A stretch of DNA of 64,000 bases from Candidatus Gottesmanbacteria bacterium. GTDB taxonomy: Bacteria > Patescibacteriota > Microgenomatia > UBA10105 > UBA927. The stretch is from the NCBI GenBank assembly GCA_963790805.1, contig CAWBPL010000002.1, forward strand, positions 704,696 to 768,695, in the 5' to 3' direction. The notes beneath the pieces are model-generated. The model had not been told where the DNA came from. It worked only from the letters and a program-made list of their open reading frames with translations, and did not search any database. Positions within the stretch are counted from its first letter, which is position 1. Each line of letters starts with the position of its first letter. Positions 3,096 through 61,575 of the stretch are shown one piece after another. The position numbers and the translations under genes were made by a program.

Positions 3096-3272
3096 ACGCG
3101 TAACCCTATCATATCATTTTTACGTCAGATCGCGTACGAAACGGCATAGTGCTGGGACCCGTTCGGTGTGCTCAAGGTGAACTTTGCAGTTTCTTTCCAT
3201 CCTCACTAAATGAACGTTTGCGATTGGGAATTGACTCTACAATTCTCGCGCAAACGTTCAGGTTGTCCGCAC
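3096..3272. repeat. palindromic interspersed repeat, family E copy 1
   Basis: Shares the blocks ACGCGTAAC, GGGACCCGTTCGGTGTGCTCA, ATCCTCACTAAATGAAC and GTTCAGGTTGTCCGCAC with the reverse complement of 61331-61470. The internal hairpin differs in sequence but not in form (GTTTGCG..CGCAAAC here, CCCCGCCG..CGGCGGGG there). Confidence 0.75.
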
Positions 3273-3312
3273 TATGGTTTTGCACGCGATCCTCACGAGG
3301 CTTTCAAGGGGT

Positions 3313-3474
3313 GGCGCGGGTTGAGGGGCTCCCATCGAGCGCCCGCAGTCTCGCATTACTACGAATTACGTGAATAGGATATAAGAGGTTGTTTTGTGAC
3401 CAGAAGACAATAGGTAATATTTAAGCAGGTTTGCGGGACGAGGACGTCGGATGGGAGAAAACCCGCGCCAGTCC
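3313..3474. repeat. palindromic interspersed repeat, family A copy 1 (long hairpin)
   Basis: GCGCGGGTTGAGGGGCTCCCATCGAGCGCCCGCAG ... GCGGGACGAGGACGTCGGATGGGAGAAAACCCGCGCCAG. The two arms are mutually complementary. The same arms recur at 38931-39090 and 48901-48973. Confidence 0.8.
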
Positions 3475-3480
3475 TTGCTT

Positions 3481-3541: not shown

Positions 3542-4198
3542 TTAAACGCTTAATTTTTTCTTGATGATCATCGCAATACCGCTTACAGTGGAAAGTCCAC
3601 CCATAGCGCCGACGACGTTCATAAGCATTTCATCAGCAACACCGGTGCCTGCAAATTCGGTTGTGGCACCCAAGACCTGTCCCTGTGGAGCTGCTGTGCA
3701 TGACGGACAGCTTGATCGACCGTCACTTCGTCCGTCTGATCGTCCATCGCCGGGACCACCCGGATTTGATGGAGGCTGAGTCACAACCGGCGTCGGGCTC
3801 GGCGTTACGGTCGGAGTCGGACTTTCACAAGGATTTTTGTCCTTGTTAGAGTTAAAGCTATATGTGACTTCTCCGCCATGATTCTGACACGGATCTACGG
3901 TTGGCGTAGGAGTCGGTGTGTTGTGATCATGGTCGTGGTCGTGGTCATCGCCTTTGTCGCCACCATTGTCGCCACCTTGGTTTCCACCATTATTGCCACC
4001 GTTATAGCCTTGATCGCCACCTTGGTTTCCACCATTTCCACCTTGGTTACCTCCCTGATTACCACCTTGGTTTCCACCTTGGTTACCAAAATCGGAAAAT
4101 GCCGGTTTAACTGAAACCGCGAGCGATGTGCCAACCATGGCACCAACAATTACTACAATACCAAGAACACGAAGCATTTTATTTTTCATAAAAAACAC
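3542..4198 (-). CDS. secreted low-complexity surface protein with a C-terminal sorting-signal-like tail
   Basis: 218 aa. It has a signal/TM N-terminus, (GGNQ)n repeats, a DHDHDHDH tract and PT-rich linkers. The C-terminus reads TTEFAGTG-VADEMLM-hydrophobic-KKKLSV. The gene is adjacent to a sortase. Confidence 0.6.
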   Translation of the reverse strand: MFFMKNKMLRVLGIVVIVGAMVGTSLAVSVKPAFSDFGNQGGNQGGNQGGNQGGNGGNQGGDQGYNGGNNGGNQGGDNGGDKGDDHDHDHDHNTPTPTPTVDPCQNHGGEVTYSFNSNKDKNPCESPTPTVTPSPTPVVTQPPSNPGGPGDGRSDGRSDGRSSCPSCTAAPQGQVLGATTEFAGTGVADEMLMNVVGAMGGLSTVSGIAMIIKKKLSV

Positions 4199-4310
4199 TT
4201 TTTGGCAGGTGGTTTATACGTTGCGCGAAATTATATCACACTGTGTCAAATAGTCAAGTAAGAGTATAGAAGAGCATCATTATTGTATGCCTTTATGAGT
4301 TTTTTTACGA

Positions 4311-4419
4311 CCTGCTCAAGACAAAATTTTCTGGCTCCGCTGCTCGCAATAGCTTCACTTTTTATCAGGTTCTTCGTTTTAAGCTCGGGAAGCGAGCTGC
4401 GAAAATTTTATCTTTTCGC
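4311..4419. repeat. palindromic interspersed repeat, family C copy 1
   Basis: GACAAAATTTTCTGGCTCCGCTGCTCGCAATAG ... AGCTCGGGAAGCGAGCTGCGAAAATTTTATC. The arms are complementary and a homologous copy lies at 6851-6960. Confidence 0.7.
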
Positions 4420-4495
4420 ATGTCCGTTGACGTCTTTCCGCGTATTTGAGCAGCTCTTATAAGTCGTATTTTTATCGTGTTATACTTGGTATGCC

Positions 4496-5356: not shown

Positions 5357-5481
5357 GCGTGATGCGCGCTCGCGAACGAAAATTTTGATGCGTCTTCAGT
5401 TTCAAGCGCCTCTTCTCCATATGCTTAATCCTTAAGAGAAAGTGAAGCCGCACAACATTTTGTTCGCTCGACGCATCGCGC
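5357..5481. repeat. palindromic interspersed repeat, family B copy 1
   Basis: The reverse complement aligns along its length with 36173-36317 (GCGCTTGAAACTGAAGACG.ATC.AAATTTTCGTT.GCGAGC and CGGCTTCACTTTCTCT). The outer arms GCGTGATGCGCG...CGCATCGCGC are complementary. Confidence 0.8.
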
Positions 5482-6243: not shown

Positions 6244-6758
6244 CAGAAGATCAGCTCGTCACCACCATGCTCGCGTCCAGTTTTATGAAGGCTGATTTAC
6301 TACGCCGGATCAGGCTGGTGCGTGAGTTTTCGGAGCAGCGGTTTTTTACCCCTTCAGGCAAAAAAGAGCTTCCGGAATTTTATACGTTCGCCAACGTTTC
6401 CGAGGAGGATCAGAAGGTGTTAAACGGGTGGGGGAAAGATTTTTTCAGTTCGTTTACGAAAGAAAATGCATATGATTTACTTGAAAAGATTGCGGCCAAA
6501 ACCAAGGATTTGCCTGCAATTAATCTCTACGTTCCCATTAATCCCGATGCAAATGAGGCGGGGAAGCTCGGCGCATGGTTTCGTGCGAATGTCGACAAAT
6601 TTATTCTTATAGAAGTTCATGTCGATTCTTCGACGTTTGGCGGATGCGCATTTGCTTGGAACGGGGTGTACTACGATTATTCTCTGCGACATTATATGCA
6701 TAGAAAAATGGATGGAATCAGAAAAGTTTTAGATGAATTTACGAAGGAAAAAGAATGA
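6240..6758 (+). CDS. atpH: F-type ATP synthase subunit delta (OSCP-like)
   Basis: 172 aa. The C-terminal VDSSTFGGCAFAWNGVYYDYSLRHYM matches the delta/OSCP signature (vD.sliGG..i..gd.v.D.S.r..L). It occupies the operon position before alpha. Confidence 0.6.
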   Translation: MTEDQLVTTMLASSFMKADLLRRIRLVREFSEQRFFTPSGKKELPEFYTFANVSEEDQKVLNGWGKDFFSSFTKENAYDLLEKIAAKTKDLPAINLYVPINPDANEAGKLGAWFRANVDKFILIEVHVDSSTFGGCAFAWNGVYYDYSLRHYMHRKMDGIRKVLDEFTKEKE

Positions 6759-6788
6759 AAGGTCATAATGTGTATGCCTATTTTATTG

Positions 6789-7042
6789 ACGATACAAGGA
6801 GGTATGCTTTTTGCCCAGCACCGTCACGCGCAGGAGCTCTGAAGACGCATTGTTGCTCGTGACAAAATTATTTTGATCCGCTGCTCGCAATAGTTTATCT
6901 GTCCATATATCGGGATATTGCTTAGCTCGAGAAGCGATCTGCAATAATTTTGTCACTCGCCCGTATGAGGCCCTGAGTTTTCAAAAAAGCCTCAAGCCTT
7001 CTTGACGGATGCGCACAAAAAGCATACCGACGACAGTATCGC
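6789..7042. repeat. palindromic interspersed repeat, family C copy 2 nested in an outer inverted repeat
   Basis: The inner part (6851-6960) is homologous to 4311-4419. The outer arms GATACAAGGAGGTATGCTTTTTG (about 6792-6814) and CAAAAAGCATACCGACGACAGTATC (about 7016-7040) are complementary. Confidence 0.7.
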
Positions 7043-7075
7043 AGTCATATTTGATAAAAATACATGAGGTAACAT

Positions 7076-8598
7076 ATGCCAACACCAACACCAACGCCAA
7101 TGAAACGAGCCAAGTTTACGATGCCGCCGCCGGCCGAACAGGAAAAAAAAGCGGGTAAGATTATCCCGACGGTCGGCGATAAAGAAGTAGGCTACGTGGT
7201 TTCTACGCAGGATTATATTGTCATCGTGGAAGGGCTTCCCTCGGCCCGTCTATACAACATTATCGTGACAAAAAACGGCGGTCGGGCGATGGTGTCGGCC
7301 TTGGAAAAAGATCGCATCGAAGCGCTTATGCTGGATTCCGAGCGGCCGAAGCCGGGTGATTATTTTGAGCTTTCGGACTTCGGACTACGACTTCCTCTTA
7401 ACGTCGACCTTTTCGGCCGCATGATTAATCCTCTGGGTATGGCGCTCGACGGCAAAGCCGGATTGCCGCCGGGAGGCGAACCGCTTGATCTTGATATCGT
7501 GGCTCCAGGAATTGACGGCCGTGCGGCCGTTACGGAGCAGTTCTACACCGGTCTTACGGTCGTTGATACGCTTCTTCCTGTCGGCAAAGGCCAGCGGGAG
7601 CTTATTATGTGTGAGCCGCGAAGCGGAAAAGAACAGTTTTTCCTTGACGTGATTCTTTCGCAAAAAACGCAGAACCGCGTCTGCATCTATGCCGCGATCG
7701 GGCGAAGCGAACTTGAAGTCAAACGGTTTTCGGAAGATATCAAAACCATCGGCGCTGATACGTATACCATTATCGTTGCCGCAACATCCAGCGAATCGGC
7801 GCCTATGATTCAGATAGCGCCGTCTGTCGCTTCGGCCTTAGCGGAATATTACCGGAATCTGGGCCGCCATGTTCTTTTAATTCTTGACGATCTGGCCACC
7901 CATGCAAAATACGCGCGTGAGATTTCACTTCTTGCCGGCCGGATTCCCGGCCGCGAGTCGTATCCTGCCGATATTTTTTACCAGCACTCGAGCATTGTGG
8001 AGCGGGCAGGTAATTTTAATGATCATTATCACAACGGTTCGATTACGATGCTGCCGACTATTGAAACCAACATCGAAAACTTCACCAACCTCATTCCGAC
8101 CAACGTCATGTCGATGACGGACGGCCATATTTTGTTCTCCGCAAACCTGAGGGCACAGGGTGTGTATCCGGCTATTGAGGCTGACCGCTCCGTCACCCGC
8201 GTCGGACGCCAGACGCAGACGTTTATTCATAAGGTGCTTTCCGATCGTGTCAGGTTATTACTTGCCGAATACCACGAGCTCGAGCGCTACGGCCGGTTCG
8301 GCAGCGAGCTTTCCGCAGAGACGCAGCTCAAAATTAAGCGGGGAAAAGTGGTTGAAGAACTTCTCAAGCAGGATCCGATGTCGTCCATCAGCCCCCAAGC
8401 GCAGATTGTCATGCTTTCACTCGTATTCACGGGATTTTTCGATAAAATGGATTTAGATTCCCTAAGGACACTCAAAAAGAAAGTCGTTGCCACACTGCAA
8501 TCTAGCACGTATAAGACGGTCATGGATGCGACCAAAACAGCGAAGCTGGATGAGCTCATCACGCAATTAAAGACACAGTTAAAACCTTTGGAGGATGC

Positions 8599-11950: not shown

Positions 11951-31000
<19,050 letters not shown>

Positions 31001-35862: not shown

Positions 35863-36120
35863 GCGGAGGCTTCGTTCGACGCTCTCGTCCAATATCTATG
35901 TATTAAAAGACAGAATCGGTCGTGCGGGTTTTCTCTGTTTGGGCTCCCGCTTACATTTTTTCGTCCTCACTAGTTGCGGGTCCTGTCAACTGTGTATTCC
36001 AGCGATATCCTCGTCCCGCACCGGATCTCAAATGGTGTATTATTTTATCTTCTGATCGCACAACGACCAGTTACAGTAAACAAAGAATCGAGAAGCATTC
36101 GTGCGGGATTCCGGATTCGC
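35863..36120. repeat. palindromic interspersed repeat, family D copy 1, with a degenerate reversed family-A-like insert
   Basis: GCGGAGGCTTCGTTCGACGCTCTCGTCC and GAAGCATTCGTGCGGGATTCCGGATTCGC match the arms of 61113-61259. The interior GTGCGGGTTTTCTC...CGTCCTC...TCGTCCCGC resembles the reverse complement of the family A arm. Confidence 0.6.
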
Positions 36121-36172
36121 TGGAAGTCCTTCACAGTTGCCACCCGCTTCGTCAAAAAAAATGAATATTGAG

Positions 36173-36317
36173 GAGCGCGATACGTGCGAGCTAACAAAAT
36201 TTTGTTCGGCTTCACTTTCTCTTTAGAAAAACGTGTCTGGACGGGTGAGCGCTTGAAACTGAAGACGAATCTAAATTTTCGTTTGCGAGCAACAGAAGAG
36301 CGCGACCGTTATGCGCG
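36173..36317. repeat. palindromic interspersed repeat, family B copy 2
   Basis: Aligns with the reverse complement of 5357-5481 over about 140 nt. Confidence 0.8.
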
Positions 36318-36338
36318 TTTCTGACAGGACCCATTTTC

Positions 36339-37082
36339 TTATTTCCTCGCCACCACCAAAAGCGTATCCCGCAAACTCGCCACCATAAGCATCAGGGCGT
36401 AGTTTGCGAATTTTCCGGCTTTTAACCAGATGGGGTCGGGAACCATCCGCCGTCTCATCGGCGTATAACTCACAAAATGGGCGGCACGTTCGACAGAAAA
36501 ATTCGTATGACGCATTAATGTCGTTACTTCATTCAATGTATACTCCCGATTATGCCGGTGATAGATGTTGCTCCCTAATCCTTCGTTATCCAAGACCTGA
36601 TGAAGGGGGTATGTGACGCTTTTTCCGAGTAATAATTTTGCGCGGTTAATGCTTCGGGCTATATTTGGGGTTGTCAAAAGAAGTTTTCCCTGAGGCTTCA
36701 GGACGCGATGCATTTCGTTGATTGCCCAAACAGGGGACTGCGGAAGATGTTCGAGGACCTCTGTACACAAGACAAAATCGAAAAAATTGTCGTCGAATGG
36801 AAATTTGTCGGTTTCAATGTTACAAATTTTGATTTTTTTACTTTTTATCGGTTCATGGGTGGAGGAAATTCCGTACACATTGTGTCCCAACATCTCCAGT
36901 GCCGCGCCGAAATGGTAGGGGAAACACCCGGCATCCAGAACCTTCCACTTTTTGTCGCCGGATAGCTCGACAATTTGTTCTAAGATATACCGGTATCGTG
37001 CCTCGTGAATAAGAAAGTACTCGTGTTCCTTGGGATTCGCGATTTTTGCTTCTACACTTCGAAGAATTTCCGTGACAGTCAT
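36339..37082 (-). CDS. class I SAM-dependent methyltransferase
   Basis: 247 aa. Motif I is VLDAGCFPYHFG, followed by DFVLCTEVLEHLP and LKPQGKLLLTTPN. Confidence 0.8.
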   Translation of the reverse strand: MTVTEILRSVEAKIANPKEHEYFLIHEARYRYILEQIVELSGDKKWKVLDAGCFPYHFGAALEMLGHNVYGISSTHEPIKSKKIKICNIETDKFPFDDNFFDFVLCTEVLEHLPQSPVWAINEMHRVLKPQGKLLLTTPNIARSINRAKLLLGKSVTYPLHQVLDNEGLGSNIYHRHNREYTLNEVTTLMRHTNFSVERAAHFVSYTPMRRRMVPDPIWLKAGKFANYALMLMVASLRDTLLVVARK

Positions 37083-37221
37083 GGAGTTAGTATATACCGC
37101 AAAAACTCAGGTATGCAACTCAGGTTTTTGAGTATAGACCAATCTAACCGGCTTAGCCGAAACTCAGCGAGGCGAGTAAGATTTTTGCAATTAATGCTAT
37201 TTGTGATATACTTCACCTCCT

Positions 37222-37554
37222 ATGACTATTAAAGGAAAAGCAACTGTATGGTCAGCACTCCTTGACGGACTTCGCAGAGTACCGGTAGACCTCGATTATA
37301 GAAGGGGTCTTCCTAACGGGGAAACTGGTAAGTTTTCTTTGGAGCAACAACGTGGAACTATTTATGACTTTACTCTCGTTGACGGGCCCGATGGAGGTCA
37401 TTACGAAGCTGAAGGAAACACGGAGGTTCTTGTTGATGGTCAGATTGCTTCTATGGTTGGTGACCTTCGAGACGGACAAACGATTAATGCAAGCGTAAGG
37501 GGTCAGGGACAGTTAGAGGCAAAATACCAAAAACCCAGCTTGCGGGAAGGGTAA
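37222..37554 (+). CDS. hypothetical protein
   Basis: 110-aa ORF with normal composition and no recognisable motif. Confidence 0.35.
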   Translation: MTIKGKATVWSALLDGLRRVPVDLDYRRGLPNGETGKFSLEQQRGTIYDFTLVDGPDGGHYEAEGNTEVLVDGQIASMVGDLRDGQTINASVRGQGQLEAKYQKPSLREG

Positions 37555-37605
37555 GCTTCGCTTCATCCTCAGGGCTAATTTCCTGCTTCGTGTTACAATA
37601 CTCCC

Positions 37606-39882
37606 ATGTCTTCTCAGGATCATATTCGTAACTTTGCCATAATCGCCCATATAGATCACGGGAAAAGTACCCTTGCGGACCGTTTGCTGGAAATTACCCA
37701 TACGGTGGCTATGCGCGACATGCAGGCACAGATCCTTGACAGCAACCCTATCGAGCGCGAGCGGGGAATTACGATAAAGCTGGCGCCGGTACGGATGCAT
37801 TACAGTCGCGGGGATAAGGGATTGGTATTAGGTATTACGCAGAAACCAAATGTAGTTTCCCCTAATACGAAATACGAAACCCCTAATACGATTGAGAATT
37901 ATATTCTCAATCTTATAGATACTCCCGGACACGTTGATTTTGGCTATGAAGTGAGCCGGTCGCTTGCGGCTTGCGAAGGCGCCATACTCGTTGTTGACGC
38001 GACGCAGGGCGTGCAGGCGCAGACTTTAGCCAATCTCCATCAGGCACGGGCTCACAACCTTACGATTATTCCGGTTATCAATAAAATCGATATGCCGCAC
38101 GCACGCATTTCGGAAACACGCGAAGAATTGCGGGCGCTGGATTTTCGCGATGAAGAGATGATAGAAATTTCCGCAAAAACCGGAGAAAATGTTGAAAAAG
38201 TATTGGAGGCAGTGATAGAAAAAATTCCTCCGCCGACCGGAAATTCTGAAAAACCGTTGCGGGCTCTGATATTTTCTTCACAGTATGATACCCATAAAGG
38301 AGTAGTTATTTTTGTACGAGTTGTTGATGGTACTTTACCTTTTGATACACATACGAGTATTCGCTTTATGTTTTCAAATGCCTCAATTACTCCGATAGAA
38401 GTTGGTTTTTTCATGCCTCAAATGTTGGCATCTGAGGCGATTAAAACTGGAGAAGTTGGTTACGTTGCAACCGGTTTGAAAGATGTCCGGTTCGCAAAAG
38501 TAGGCGACACGGTGACGGTAGGAAGGGTCGTCAACGCCACTGTACAGCCGCCTACGGCCCGCGAGCCGCTAGCGGGCTATAAGGAGCCTAAATCGATGGT
38601 ATTTGTGAGCCTGTTTCCAATACAGACTGACGCATTCAGCCGTGCACGCGAAGCTATGGAGAAATTGCGCTTAAGCGACTCGGCATTTAACTTCCGGCCG
38701 ATTTCGTCGCTCGCTTTAGGCAACGGTTTCCACTGCGGATTTTTGGGACTTCTGCATGCCGAAATCGTGCAGGAGCGCCTGTCGCGGGAATTTGATTTGA
38801 ATATGATTGCAACCGCGCCGTCTGTCGAATATCATCTGACCATCAAATCCGGTGTGTCGCTTTCCAAATTAGGCCTGACGGCATCAAATATAATTGATGA
38901 AGCCATGCGGGAAGAAGGCGGGTCGCGGGTGACGCGGATTGAGGGGCTCCCGTCGAGCGCCCGCAGCCCCGCTGCTACAGGAGACACAGAGCAGGAAAAT
39001 TCCGGTGTGAGTGCGAACGAAAAAACTCGACAAATCAAACAAAAGGAAACGGGCGAGGACGTCGGACGGGAGAAATCCGCGGCAGGACCCGACGTTCGCG
39101 CGGCTGAGGTCGTGAACGAACATTTAGATCCGTCTTCAGTTCTCTCGCGAAATCAGAGTGTCTCATCCATACAATCATTCTCGCTCGCAAATGAATCCGG
39201 ACAAAATGTTGTTCACTCCCCGCCGCGTGGTACTACCGTTGCTATCCAATCGGCCGCAGAATATCCGGATCCGACCGTGATTGAGGGTGTCCGCGAACCC
39301 ATTATGGAAGTGAAAATTTTTACGCCGAAACAATATGTCGGTGCCGTTATGCAACTATCTGAGGAAAAGCGGGGAGAGTATATTGATCTTAAATACGTCG
39401 GAGAGCAGGCGGAATTTACCTATCTTATCCCGCTTTCGGAAATGATTGTCGACTTTTTTGACAGGCTCAAGAGCGTTTCTGAAGGCTATGCCAGCCTTGA
39501 TTATAATTTTTTTGAATATCAGGCGGTGAGCGTCGCGAAAGTCGACATACTGGTCAATAAAGAAAAAGTCGATGCACTCTCGTTTTTAGCGGTGGAAAGT
39601 CAGGCCCGCCATCGGGCGATTGCTATTGTAGAGCGCCTCGCCGACGTTATTCCACGCCAGCAATTCCAGATTCCGATACAGGGGGCGATCGGCGGACAGG
39701 TAATCGCCCGAAGCGACGTCAAAGCATTTAGGAAAGACGTCATCCAGAAGCTCTACGGCGGTGACCGTACGCGCAAAGACAAACTTCTCGAAGCGCAGAA
39801 AAAAGGAAAAGAACGAATGAAATTAGTCGGGCGCGTCGAAATTCCCCAATCTGCTTTCTTTGAGGTGTTAAAGAGAGAATAA
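37606..39882 (+). CDS. lepA: elongation factor 4 (LepA) carrying two in-frame insertions
   Basis: IRNFAIIAHIDHGKSTLADRLL, DTPGHVDF, NKID, the LepA-specific C-terminal domain (DFFDRLKSVSEGYASLDYNF) and the tail KKGKERMKLVGRVEIPQSAFFEVLK. At 758 aa it exceeds the usual ~600 aa. Extra segments lie at about 37826-37900 and about 38850-39250. Confidence 0.95.
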   Translation: MSSQDHIRNFAIIAHIDHGKSTLADRLLEITHTVAMRDMQAQILDSNPIERERGITIKLAPVRMHYSRGDKGLVLGITQKPNVVSPNTKYETPNTIENYILNLIDTPGHVDFGYEVSRSLAACEGAILVVDATQGVQAQTLANLHQARAHNLTIIPVINKIDMPHARISETREELRALDFRDEEMIEISAKTGENVEKVLEAVIEKIPPPTGNSEKPLRALIFSSQYDTHKGVVIFVRVVDGTLPFDTHTSIRFMFSNASITPIEVGFFMPQMLASEAIKTGEVGYVATGLKDVRFAKVGDTVTVGRVVNATVQPPTAREPLAGYKEPKSMVFVSLFPIQTDAFSRAREAMEKLRLSDSAFNFRPISSLALGNGFHCGFLGLLHAEIVQERLSREFDLNMIATAPSVEYHLTIKSGVSLSKLGLTASNIIDEAMREEGGSRVTRIEGLPSSARSPAATGDTEQENSGVSANEKTRQIKQKETGEDVGREKSAAGPDVRAAEVVNEHLDPSSVLSRNQSVSSIQSFSLANESGQNVVHSPPRGTTVAIQSAAEYPDPTVIEGVREPIMEVKIFTPKQYVGAVMQLSEEKRGEYIDLKYVGEQAEFTYLIPLSEMIVDFFDRLKSVSEGYASLDYNFFEYQAVSVAKVDILVNKEKVDALSFLAVESQARHRAIAIVERLADVIPRQQFQIPIQGAIGGQVIARSDVKAFRKDVIQKLYGGDRTRKDKLLEAQKKGKERMKLVGRVEIPQSAFFEVLKRE
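38931..39090. repeat. palindromic interspersed repeat, family A copy 2, inside the lepA coding frame
   Basis: GACGCGGATTGAGGGGCTCCCGTCGAGCGCCCGCAG ... GGGCGAGGACGTCGGACGGGAGAAATCCGCGGCAGGACCC. The arms are the same as at 3313-3474, with a compensatory A>G / T>C change. Confidence 0.8.
39095..39220. repeat. family B-related repeat segment inside the lepA coding frame
   Basis: CGTGAACGAACATTTAGATCCGTCTTCAGTT matches CGCGAACGAAAATTTTGATGCGTCTTCAGTT at 5371-5401. GGACAAAATGTTGTTCACT resembles the other family B arm. Confidence 0.6.
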
Positions 39883-39916
39883 CGCGAGGATTTGTTCTGT
39901 GATATAATTATAGGAT

Positions 39917-41014
39917 ATGACTGTTGAGTCCGTGAGAGCTGATTTGACCGTTTCTTCAATGCCGGCATTTTCTGTAGAATCTGGTGAATCGGATTGGCAG
40001 GAGCGAACGGGCGTTTTATTAGAAGATACCCATTTTAGTCTCATGCTTCCGATTCATAACGAAGCAATAAGCATGCCCGGTGTCTTGCGCGGGCTTGCGG
40101 AAAATCGTCTGCCGCAGCAAGCCGATATTCAGATAATTTTTGTGACGAACAATTGTACTGATGCAAGCGCGCCAATTGTTGACAAATTTCTCTCGGATAA
40201 CGGCCCCGTTGAAGATGTAAAGGATGAATCGCTTCTGGCCATAGATCCGAAAGTTCAAACTGTTAAACGGGTACAAGCCGGTGGTATGCAGCTATGGCAC
40301 ATTGATACGACAATGCAGAGTAAAGCAAATGCACTGAATCTCGGGATTGATGTGGCCATCAAGGCTGGTCATCAGATTGGCATTATCATGGATGCAGATG
40401 TACATCCGGATTCTGATGCTATAGCGCTCTTATTTGGTCAAGCATATGAGCATCTTGTTCGAAATCCCGATGATACGGCGTTATTAAATACAACCTTAAA
40501 AAATCTGAGCGATCATTCGCACTTGAAATTACCAAATGACCGTTTTGCAGGCGGTAGATTCCTCGCTTTCGATACAAACTGGATGAGTGAGACGGGAGGA
40601 GTGCCGCTTGTGGTAAATGAAGACATAGCGGTATCTAGGCTGGCAATACATGCTGGTAAAAAAATTACTCCGGTTCCGGAAGCAGCAGTGAGTGGATATT
40701 TACCCCAAACTATACGAGACATATTTGGTCAAAAAAAACGCACAATCATCAGTCACATGCAAATCGCATCTCTGTATAGTGAAACTATGCCTGATATTCG
40801 AGAATATGTCCTTCAGCCCCGTTACATGAGGCCCTTTCCGCAGCGGATTCGATTATTCGCTTCGACGTTTTTACGTCATCCCGATTCTATGTCAGACAGA
40901 CTGTTGCAATATCTTGTTGAAGAAATAGCTCTGATTCAGGCAAGAAAAGAGTATCGCGGAAATCCTAATACTGCTACATGGTCCCCGTTGCCTTCGACAA
41001 AAAAAGCATTGTAG
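39917..41014 (+). CDS. family 2 glycosyltransferase
   Basis: 365 aa. It has the GT2 N-terminal pattern FSLMLPIHNEAISMPGVLRGL...IIFVTNNCTDAS and a DxD-like IIMDADVHPD. Confidence 0.75.
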   Translation: MTVESVRADLTVSSMPAFSVESGESDWQERTGVLLEDTHFSLMLPIHNEAISMPGVLRGLAENRLPQQADIQIIFVTNNCTDASAPIVDKFLSDNGPVEDVKDESLLAIDPKVQTVKRVQAGGMQLWHIDTTMQSKANALNLGIDVAIKAGHQIGIIMDADVHPDSDAIALLFGQAYEHLVRNPDDTALLNTTLKNLSDHSHLKLPNDRFAGGRFLAFDTNWMSETGGVPLVVNEDIAVSRLAIHAGKKITPVPEAAVSGYLPQTIRDIFGQKKRTIISHMQIASLYSETMPDIREYVLQPRYMRPFPQRIRLFASTFLRHPDSMSDRLLQYLVEEIALIQARKEYRGNPNTATWSPLPSTKKAL

Positions 41015-48156: not shown

Positions 48157-48849
48157 TTAAATATTCAATCCCTGCTCATCGACAAGGTTGGCAAAAATAA
48201 GAAGCCTTTGTGCTGTGCTTCCGGGCGGCCAGCAGGTTTCAAGAATCAGGTTCTTTTTACCGGCAGAGGGGACAAGGTATTGGGTTGCAGTTGAGGAGAC
48301 CACCTGTTTATCGGTGATCTGGTAGGAATAGCGTACCCCTTTATATATAAGGATGACTAAATCGCCGTTATCGAGGTTTTTGACGAGGTAAAAGACGGCA
48401 TTGAGATCCTTGACGAACCAGTCATAATTGGTCGAGTGGGAAAACAGGTAGACCGTCCCATTCTGGTCCGGTAGGAAGGATGTGGAAGCCTGCGCAACGC
48501 CGTTTAAGAGTGCCTTGTCATACTGGTCCGGCTTGGCAGGATCGACATTTGCAACAACAGGGGCGTTTATGCCTATTTTGGGTACGATAATCGAAAAGTC
48601 CTCGCTTGCCGGAGTTATCGTGCTCCCATCAGGGGCTTTAAGCGGCTCAAAAACCACAGGTACGGATTTGGGAAGTTCCGGCTTAGGGGTCTCAAGCGCC
48701 TCGGCAACAGCCAATTGTGCACGGCTGGCTATATACCCTGCCTCGAGCCGTATATTGGGCGTAAACGGTCCGACGATGCCGCCTAACCCCAATGCCAGAA
48801 GCATGAGTCCCAAAAATTGGGAAACCGGCACAGGCATGCGGAAGGTCAT
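48157..48849 (-). CDS. sortase family transpeptidase (start moved to the internal Met)
   Basis: MTFRMPVPVSQFLGLMLLALGLGGIV is the TM anchor. His context is TVYLFSHST. The Cys motif is LILETCWPPGS, followed by Arg (QRLLIF). The track's 5' extension to 49110 runs through repeat copy A3. Confidence 0.75.
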   Translation of the reverse strand: MTFRMPVPVSQFLGLMLLALGLGGIVGPFTPNIRLEAGYIASRAQLAVAEALETPKPELPKSVPVVFEPLKAPDGSTITPASEDFSIIVPKIGINAPVVANVDPAKPDQYDKALLNGVAQASTSFLPDQNGTVYLFSHSTNYDWFVKDLNAVFYLVKNLDNGDLVILIYKGVRYSYQITDKQVVSSTATQYLVPSAGKKNLILETCWPPGSTAQRLLIFANLVDEQGLNI

Positions 48850-48900
48850 GCTTCTTGAATGGAGTTTAGAAATCCTTTTAGTGTTAAACAGCGTACGGGT

Positions 48901-48973
48901 GACGCGGGCAGAGGGGCTCCCAAGAAGGGGTCCCCTTGTGGGTGTTCTTGGGAGAAAGCCCGCGGCAGGACCC
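48901..48973. repeat. palindromic interspersed repeat, family A copy 3 (short form)
   Basis: GACGCGGGCAGAGGGGCTCCCAAGAA-N18-TTCTTGGGAGAAAGCCCGCGGCAGGACCC. The flanks match copies A1 and A2. The stem is a perfect 10 bp (CTCCCAAGAA/TTCTTGGGAG). Confidence 0.75.
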
Positions 48974-49233
48974 CAAGTGTGATTGGTAGGGAGTAAGTTG
49001 ACGAACGGCACCTCGGGAATAGCCTGAATAAGCACGGTTTTCGTACACGCACTGTCCGTACAGTTTGTATGGTTGTAGCAGTATTCGTAAATGACCTGCC
49101 AAGAGTTCATAGTGTAGGGCGAAATTATACACTATAGGTCAAGAAAGAGCAAATAAGCCACGCTGATTTGTACGGCGCATATTGTATAGAATTGTGGACA
49201 GGTTTATACTATTGGTGATTATTTTTTGAATAT

Positions 49234-61112: not shown

Positions 61113-61259
61113 GCGGAGAATCCATTCGACGCTCTCGTCCTATACCGGATCTATCCATCTGCTTCATCGCGTCTATTGTTCACACAACTGTCTTTTTTGG
61201 AACAATTCAACATTCGGGAAGCATTCGTATAGGACTCGACCGCGAATGGGAATCTCCGC
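61113..61259. repeat. palindromic interspersed repeat, family D copy 2
   Basis: The ~32-nt arms GCGGAGAATCCATTCGACGCTCTCGTCCTATA and TATAGGACTCGACCGCGAATGGGAATCTCCGC are imperfectly complementary. The TTCGACGCTCTCGTCC block is shared with 35863-35890. Confidence 0.7.
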
Positions 61260-61330
61260 TCCGTTTTTCACGTTTGCCACCCGTAAAAATAAAGCGGAGA
61301 TTATTGAAAACCGTGCGCGTAACCATGTTG

Positions 61331-61470
61331 TGGACAACTTGAACCCCGCCGCTAGTCGTATTGAAATATAAAGACTGTAACGGCGGGGTTCATTTAGTGA
61401 GGATTGAAAATATCTTCATGATTCATTATGAGCATACCGAACGGGTCCCAACAACATGTTGTTACGCGTA
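61331..61470. repeat. palindromic interspersed repeat, family E copy 2 (reverse orientation)
   Basis: The reverse complement shares the conserved blocks of 3096-3272. Confidence 0.75.
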
Positions 61471-61575
61471 CGGTTTCGCAACACAAAATGGGGAGAGATC
61501 CGTATGCACGCGTTTATAACGATACAGTTTGAATCATATTGATATATTATAGGGCATCCGTGCTATAATGCTCCT

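Follow-up and report, generated by a model that had tools for sequence, protein, structure and literature searches.

The lepA gene of this Candidatus Gottesmanbacteria stretch (contig CAWBPL010000002.1; 64,000 nucleotides, hereafter the window) carries a repeat-derived, in-frame insert of about 105–109 codons (38902–39228, forward strand; aa 433–541), composed of palindromic modules that also occur in the intergenic spacers of the same DNA. We consider it very probable that these modules are selfish hairpin repeats, comparable in behavior to the Rickettsia palindromic elements (RPEs), which occupy a permissive loop of the protein and are carried as translated, disordered sequence. In our judgement, it is the comparative evidence, and not sequence statistics, that makes this case strong.

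The host gene is an intact coding sequence (37606–39882, forward strand; 758 aa in the list of open reading frames (ORFs)) whose product matched the Pfam families GTP_EFTU (E = 2.7e-55), EFG_C (E = 1.8e-19), and LepA_C (E = 5.4e-42). It is LepA/EF4, with the G domain, domain V, and the LepA-specific C-terminal domain all present, and a protein identical to it is on record at NCBI and ENA (P0001). The ORF is uninterrupted, the flanks of the insert are well conserved, and the third codon positions are the most diverged, the pattern of ordinary purifying selection outside the insert. Alignment with Thermus thermophilus EF4 (5imq; E = 7.8e-181) was split into three pieces, in which query aa 97–418 correspond to EF4 residues 74–387 and query aa 543–756 to residues 386–602. 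The alignment thus stops at query aa 418 and restarts at aa 542/543, while the 5imq chain continues without interruption (387 to 386).

Relative to solved EF4 structures, the surplus amounts to approximately 123 codons (DNA ~38860–39228) between the conserved ATAPSVEYHL and REPIMEVKIF. The original prediction had described an in-frame insertion of about 125 codons at this place; its size as a surplus held, but only about 105–109 of the codons are repeat-derived. Some 21 surplus residues (GVSLSKLGLTASNII...) belong to a conserved loop of the clade, because repeat-free close relatives already have 42 aa between SVEYHL and IQSAxEFPDP (GVSLSKLGLTASSVIGEPTEAGTEVV), compared with 21 in minimal LepAs. 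In an alignment of the best 120 LepA homologs, all from Patescibacteria and some labelled Gottesmanbacteria, the repeat-free close relatives always kept GVSLSKLGLTASSVIG...GTEVV. This clade-conserved extension, GVSLSKLGLTASNIIDE (38851–38901, forward strand), is modelled by AlphaFold2 with a predicted local distance difference test (pLDDT) of 85–92.

Within the repeat-derived part (38902–39228) the lepA frame is free of stops, while each of the other five frames contains two to four. The insert is poor in T, and the chance of an open frame over 109 repeat-derived codons is therefore 1.3–1.6% once composition is taken into account, which replaces the earlier rough figure of about 0.003 (0.3%). 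Taken alone, this stop-codon statistic is suggestive only. Tryptic peptides predicted from the insert include IEGLPSSAR, SPAATGDTEQENSGVSANEK, and AAEVVNEHLDPSSVLSR.

A BLAST comparison of the insert with the window and two alignments confirmed that the repeat-derived DNA contains a family A element (38927–39090) followed by a family B segment (~39108–39219). The lepA copy of family A is a long form of 164 nt on the forward strand that encodes RVTRIEGLPSSARSPAAT...GEDVGREKSAAGP and folds as a long hairpin with its arms paired; these arms match two further copies in the window, 3309–3476 and 48897–48973. Against the former, identity reaches 89% over 46 nt (38927–38972) and 86% over 36 nt (39051–39085). 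The copy at 3309–3476 (168 nt, forward strand) is an intergenic long form with a strongly stabilized hairpin (z = -6.0) and stops in all six frames, and one of its frames encodes RVEGLPSSARS, the counterpart of RIEGLPSSARS in LepA that had been noticed at the outset. The third copy is a short form of 77 nt (48897–48973, forward strand) lying upstream of a minus-strand sortase gene, 48 nt from its likely start (M88). As delimited mechanically, the sortase ORF (48157–49110, minus strand) runs through this short element and thereby gains an N-terminal extension of 87 residues; downstream of the element come the transmembrane helix and what is likely the true start (MTFRMPV..., 48849). The start annotated for genes of this kind may be incorrect.

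Family B in lepA spans approximately 112 nt on the forward strand and encodes EVVNEHLDPSS.... Its arms (39110–39141 and 39189–39213) match an intergenic copy at 5368–5470 (forward strand; hairpin z = -4.0) and, in reverse, a second one at 36187–36290 (minus strand), which aligns with the lepA copy and also folds as a hairpin. Compared with the intergenic copies, the lepA copy has 10 extra nt inserted internally, and its hairpin is more stable than expected both as RNA (z = -3.2) and as DNA (z = -3.6). The 64 kb of the window therefore hold three A and three B copies, and all of them fold into long, imperfect hairpins whose arms are conserved and whose tips vary. Further palindromes stand in the spacers, often in pairs (3128–3291 with 3305–3477; 61113–61259 with 61308–61476), with others at 4303–4462, 6859–6956, and 35997–36125; the element at 3137–3215 is related to that at 61388–61466. 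These palindromes may represent the other repeat families named in the original prediction.

The family A elements proved to be widespread. The short form measures 77 nt (GGGTGACGCGGGCAGAGGGGCTCCCAAGAAGGGGTCCCCTTGTGGGTGTTCTTGGGAGAAAGCCCGCGGCAGGACCC), and in the long forms (107–168 nt) its tip is replaced by a longer, variable hairpin. [quoted passage not shown] The flanking bases tend to prolong the palindrome, with C...G in 12 of 19 copies. When 19 distinct short copies were folded to a consensus, 23 pairs resulted, nine of which show compensatory changes, indicating that the hairpin is maintained. Paired changes are found inside coding sequence as well: the arms of the lepA element read GACGCGG...CCGCGGC in the window and GACACAG...CTGTGGC in the related locus L013.

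A pattern scan of metagenome contigs for family A returned 35 loci, of which approximately 23 are complete elements, all with 40–50% G+C; the remaining loci are chance matches in coding sequence of high G+C content. About 20 copies in such contigs are near-identical relatives of the short element at 48897–48973. Scanning genome contigs with the 5' arm gave 12 loci, about nine of them again chance matches in high-G+C coding sequence; two (L009 and L010) are clear A copies with both arms, and one (L012) is a partly A-like hairpin. The intergenic window copy at 3309–3476 is ~69% identical over ~170 nt to the A copies of L010 and L022. The loci L010, L012, and L022 are binned as 'uncultured Gammaproteobacteria', yet they have 44–47% G+C and may be misbinned contigs of the candidate phyla radiation (CPR).

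Comparison with relatives revealed that the same lepA site has been occupied repeatedly. At least 10 extra residues were present at the A+B insertion site in 29 of the 120 LepA relatives, and the inserts of the closest relatives are wholly different or missing. In the sister lineage (P0002, locus L017), whose LepA core is 85.5% identical to that of the window, the site holds a short A element in the opposite orientation, identical at 77 of 78 positions to window 48897–48973 and read as RVLPRAFSQEHPQGDPFLGAPRPASPA. An independent JGI contig (L046) repeats this 77-nt element together with the adjoining lepA flank. The reversed element is certainly the product of a separate insertion event. Family B, in forward orientation, occupies the site in P0106 in three independent assemblies (L014–L016), and in P0013 (L055) a B element appears to lie reversed and nested in another palindrome, as judged by eye. 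Different hairpins were found at the site in P0006 (L054; z = -3.3) and P0017 (L056; z = -2.6), the latter with a second copy within its locus, and two other proteins (P0022 and P0025) carry QVTDAGGKPAARPG, by eye an apparent remnant of a partly deleted element. These DNA-level checks covered the loci L013–L017, L046, and L054–L056.

The window insert has a counterpart in P0042 (L013), where a long A element occupies this lepA site with the orientation and frame that it has in the window, at 68% identity over 166 nt; the L013 gene has an additional short A element at a second LepA site. In their loops, the window and L013 copies share 61% identity, compared with 30–38% to the intergenic copy of the window, and their overall identity of 68% is matched by that of the flanking gene (67%). 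A single old insertion would fit this pair, since site, orientation, frame, and loop are shared and the divergence equals that of the gene.

Elsewhere in LepA, at least four further sites are variable (after query aa 67, 246, 313, and 598), and many of the inserts there look by eye like translated palindromes. One of these sites is occupied in the window, where a second, smaller insert in the G domain (aa 69–96; 37810–37893, forward strand) leaves a gap of ~25 residues against T. thermophilus EF4 and is modelled with pLDDT <50. Inserts of at least 10 aa (10–37 aa) were present at the G-domain site in 43 of the 120 relatives, making it another hot spot of insertion across the clade. By eye, many of these are of the palindrome type (CHPGPRAGI...ARNDK, NPKSEI...LEIRNS, and others). 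The window insert itself could not be assigned to a recognizable element, its palindrome being weak and non-significant (z = -0.85) and without a second copy. Another CPR LepA, a 775-aa ORF (L025), has at least five separate repeat-type inserts, including B+A after aa 246 and several 'KQKTENPSS...' units; a leucyl-tRNA synthetase fragment (L053) likewise carries an A element plus two units of the 'AEDRKQKAENPSSVFRLPSS' type. One protein can therefore gather many elements from different families.

In-frame copies are also found in unrelated genes. Approximately 12–14 of the 32 A copies examined lie deep within long ORFs, and the remaining ones lie in ordinary short spacers between separate ORFs. 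According to Pfam, the hosts comprise a UvrD helicase that also has a PD-(D/E)XK nuclease domain, leucyl-tRNA synthetase, ComEC, a GT2 glycosyltransferase, and a TPR membrane protein; two further membrane proteins and another LepA are hosts as well, and lepA is a host at three sites. The leucyl-tRNA synthetase element lies at the C-terminal border of the match to the editing domain. The elements are read in four ways in their hosts (RVTRAEGLP...PAAGP, GGAGRGAPKKGSPCGYSWEKTRDRTR, AGPVAGFLPRIPTRGPLLGSPSARVTR, and RVLPRAFSQEHPQGDPFLGAPRPASPA), and in the UvrD helicase and the second LepA host a B-type peptide (EVANKNLDAS and EVANENLSSS) directly adjoins A, as it does in the window. The genic copies measure 77, 80, 83, 107, 131, and 164 nt, all of them 2 mod 3, and each copy examined keeps the frame of its host; the intergenic long copies measure 162, 163, and 168 nt and contain stops. 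The shared remainder of the genic lengths reflects the need to preserve the frame in order to survive, and is not proof of design.

A further example is provided by the methyltransferase gene beside lepA. In L017, this gene carries a 131-nt A element in frame, resulting in a 46-residue insert that is absent from the window ortholog (36339–37082). The same methyltransferase loop is filled in L017 (gene at 6620–7591) and in L013 (gene at 236–1069), by A in the former and by an unrelated 26-residue segment in the latter. This loop, empty in the window ortholog, counts as a second hot spot.

To place the insert in the protein, we used an AlphaFold2 model of LepA built from a 67-sequence alignment (mean pLDDT 71.7). 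The insert comes after domain III and ahead of the match to EFG_C, whose first residue is aa 563. Residues 433–537 have a pLDDT of ~33 and no secondary structure and are flanked by strands at 429–431 and 543–547; the model places them as an unstructured excursion between the two strands, in a region where confidence is by nature very low. On this model, the segment would be a disordered loop at the protein surface. For the window compared with L013, identity at the first, second, and third codon positions is 0.65/0.74/0.63 in the A insert and 0.73/0.81/0.43 over the whole gene, and because this pattern is flat compared with the gene-wide one, the insert peptide appears to be little constrained. 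The 109-aa insert had 0 hits in a full phmmer search of 1.84 billion representatives, and no protein in a 5.8-billion-protein index scored against the 105-aa insert. DNA patterns were more productive than protein searches, since the encoded peptides are short, biased, and fast-evolving.

These observations are best explained as follows. A long-form A element and a B element, both non-autonomous, hairpin-forming mobile repeats, make up the composite insert and would have arrived at the tip of the beta-hairpin joining LepA domain III to domain V. Both families are scattered through this and related Patescibacteria (CPR) genomes, in spacers as well as genes. Selection presumably purges copies that break a protein, so that the surviving genic copies keep the frame and sit in loops. 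The insert would persist because, free of stops in this frame, it adds some 105–109 hydrophilic, disordered residues as a loop that the GTPase tolerates, and it is probably near-neutral for LepA function. The same loop has been colonized repeatedly in related lineages, and the adjacency and nesting of the elements suggest that existing hairpins attract further insertions. With this, the proposal that modules of the spacers are carried in frame within lepA in the manner of RPEs was borne out by the dispersed hairpins, the in-frame copies in unrelated genes, and the recurrent use of the lepA site.

Several observations weigh against this account. Translation of the insert we infer solely from the preservation of its frame, and the screen for genic copies demanded an open frame across the element, which made frame-breaking copies undetectable. 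The hairpin of the lepA A copy is overall not significantly more stable than that of shuffled sequences (z = -1.4). The short A element is open in five of six frames, as its G+C content predicts (P = 0.19–0.32); shuffled sequences match this in 19–32% of trials, and such openness was therefore rejected as a sign of adaptation to coding DNA. The flanks of ~20 A copies contained no direct repeat that would represent a target-site duplication, and no target motif, transposase, or parent insertion sequence was identified, although no screen aimed at transposases was made. Finally, a neighbor-joining tree placed many taxa without A between the window and L013, which a single insertion could accommodate through several clean losses; the pattern of these two loci would also be explained if one A subfamily had inserted twice.

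Other explanations were weighed against the same evidence. The insert could be a selected, lineage-specific LepA module exapted from repeats, for example for a contact with the CPR ribosome or with a membrane. This would agree with its being in frame, with the presence of the same A subfamily at the same site in L013 (loop identity of 61% versus 30–38%), and with its location in the segment that links domain III to domain V, which we take to be topologically where EF-G carries domain IV. We nevertheless regard such exaptation as unlikely, given the turnover at the site, where the closest relatives have other inserts or none, the flat codon-position pattern, and the lack of AlphaFold2 structure and of protein homologs; in addition, the same DNA is read in four frames elsewhere, and no single peptide is therefore conserved. 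An intein is not indicated, as Pfam detected no Hint or intein family and no endonuclease domain in the 758-aa protein, and by eye the insert borders lack the usual junction residues. The hairpins could alternatively be intervening sequences that are removed or skipped after transcription, either by RNA processing and ligation or by ribosomal bypass. The rRNA genes of CPR bacteria carry insertions, and both the compensatory changes that preserve the hairpin even within coding sequence and the weak constraint on the insert peptide would suit such a process. However, Rfam yielded no group I or II intron or other known RNA at E ≤ 1 in 36000–41000, only two tRNAs over the whole window at the gathering score, and only a chance-level hit at the short A copy. 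Moreover, the genic copies examined are open and preserve the frame in their length, which would be needless if they were excised; this point is suggestive, as the screen favored open frames. Removal at the RNA level thus appears very unlikely.

An assembly artefact, such as a repeat-induced chimera, or a part of a decaying pseudogene is the least credible source of the insert, and we hold it to be extremely improbable. Repeats can mislead assemblers, and LepA is dispensable in laboratory Escherichia coli; yet homologous inserts stand at the same site in independent assemblies of different samples (L013, L014–L016, and L017 with L046), the 758-codon ORF is intact, and its flanks are conserved with third positions the most diverged. 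It is also conceivable, though improbable in our estimation, that the 77-nt A hairpin works as a nucleic-acid module with a function and passes horizontally between CPR bacteria. This idea derives from the near-invariance of the element across CPR lineages whose housekeeping proteins have diverged by at least 15%, the compensated stem, and its recurrence beside B. Such a module could be where an unknown recombinase or nuclease acts, a target related to defence or phages, or a part of the mRNA that processing removes, and if so, the protein genes of CPR bacteria would, like their rRNA genes, carry a new class of intervening sequence.

If selfish hairpin repeats in permissive loops are the correct explanation, the consequences extend beyond one gene. 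In-frame palindromic selfish DNA in essential genes has so far been treated largely as a peculiarity of Rickettsia. Should the pattern hold genome-wide, such colonization would be common in at least one large CPR clade, with several families and several hot spots per protein and with hosts that include enzymes of translation, repair, and tRNA charging. It would help to explain why CPR proteins often exceed their homologs in length and are harder than these to align or annotate, supply presence/absence markers for CPR phylogeny and strain tracking, and identify segments to be masked ahead of structure prediction or phylogenomics. It would also offer a second, independent system for studying how random insertions of peptide are accommodated by proteins. 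The two known systems would then both be reduced genomes of host-dependent bacteria, raising the question of whether such genomes are especially permissive.

Repetitive sequence of other kinds is also present in the window. Approximately 15 kb of repeats with a 9-nt period (ACCGGTxCxACCGGT...; 14600–30000) encode collagen-like Gly-X-Thr/Ser triplets in one or more giant repetitive ORFs, with several apparent frame breaks (e.g., CCAACCGGACC variants) that are either real or assembly noise. A repeat with a 12-nt period (CCACCTTGGTTTCCA-like; 3927–4088) forms a Gly/Asn-rich low-complexity segment in the ORF at 3542–4198 (minus strand).

Among known systems, the RPEs provide the closest parallel. 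These are palindromic repeats found both in spacers and in frame within genes (Ogata et al. 2000, summarized in a 2024 review of MITEs, PMC10969869). Families A and B are likewise short palindromes (about 80–170 nt) that belong to a set of several families with many copies. They too occur in spacers and in frame in unrelated housekeeping genes, where they would add a peptide, in a predicted loop, and leave the protein unbroken, their hosts are host-dependent bacteria with small genomes, and partly deleted remnants are apparently present. The hosts differ in phylum (Patescibacteria/CPR), and the likeness we claim is one of behavior, not of sequence or family membership. In contrast to RPE families, each of which is described with one conserved peptide, at least four frames and orientations are in use for family A. 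Further differences are that A and B adjoin or nest in one another, that LepA alone has at least five hot spots struck by many families, and that the 77-nt core is almost identical between lineages whose LepA cores are only ~85% identical.

MITEs with intragenic in-frame copies include ERIC, BOX, Correia, Nezha, and others (PMC10969869). The elements described here resemble them in being non-autonomous, shorter than 300 nt, bounded by inverted repeats, present in many copies, and occasionally fused in frame; they differ in that no target-site duplication was seen and in an in-frame genic share of roughly 40% of the sampled copies, far above the descriptions of most MITEs. With the repetitive extragenic palindromes (REPs) and bacterial interspersed mosaic elements (BIMEs), which RAYT (IS200/IS605-like) transposases mobilize, they share hairpins, mosaic arrays of different units, and the lack of an evident target duplication. 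REPs, however, measure 20–40 nt and are extragenic by definition, whereas the present elements measure 77–168 nt and are often genic. Inteins and self-splicing introns also appear as in-frame or precisely bounded surplus DNA in a conserved gene, but the lepA insert is composed of dispersed repeats that are found in spacers as well. A search of the full-text literature for palindromic elements or MITEs in combination with CPR or Patescibacteria returned nothing relevant. Taken together, the comparison points to RPE-like behavior in a new phylum, unusual in its many families, its several hot spots, its use of multiple frames, and its near-invariant 77-nt core.

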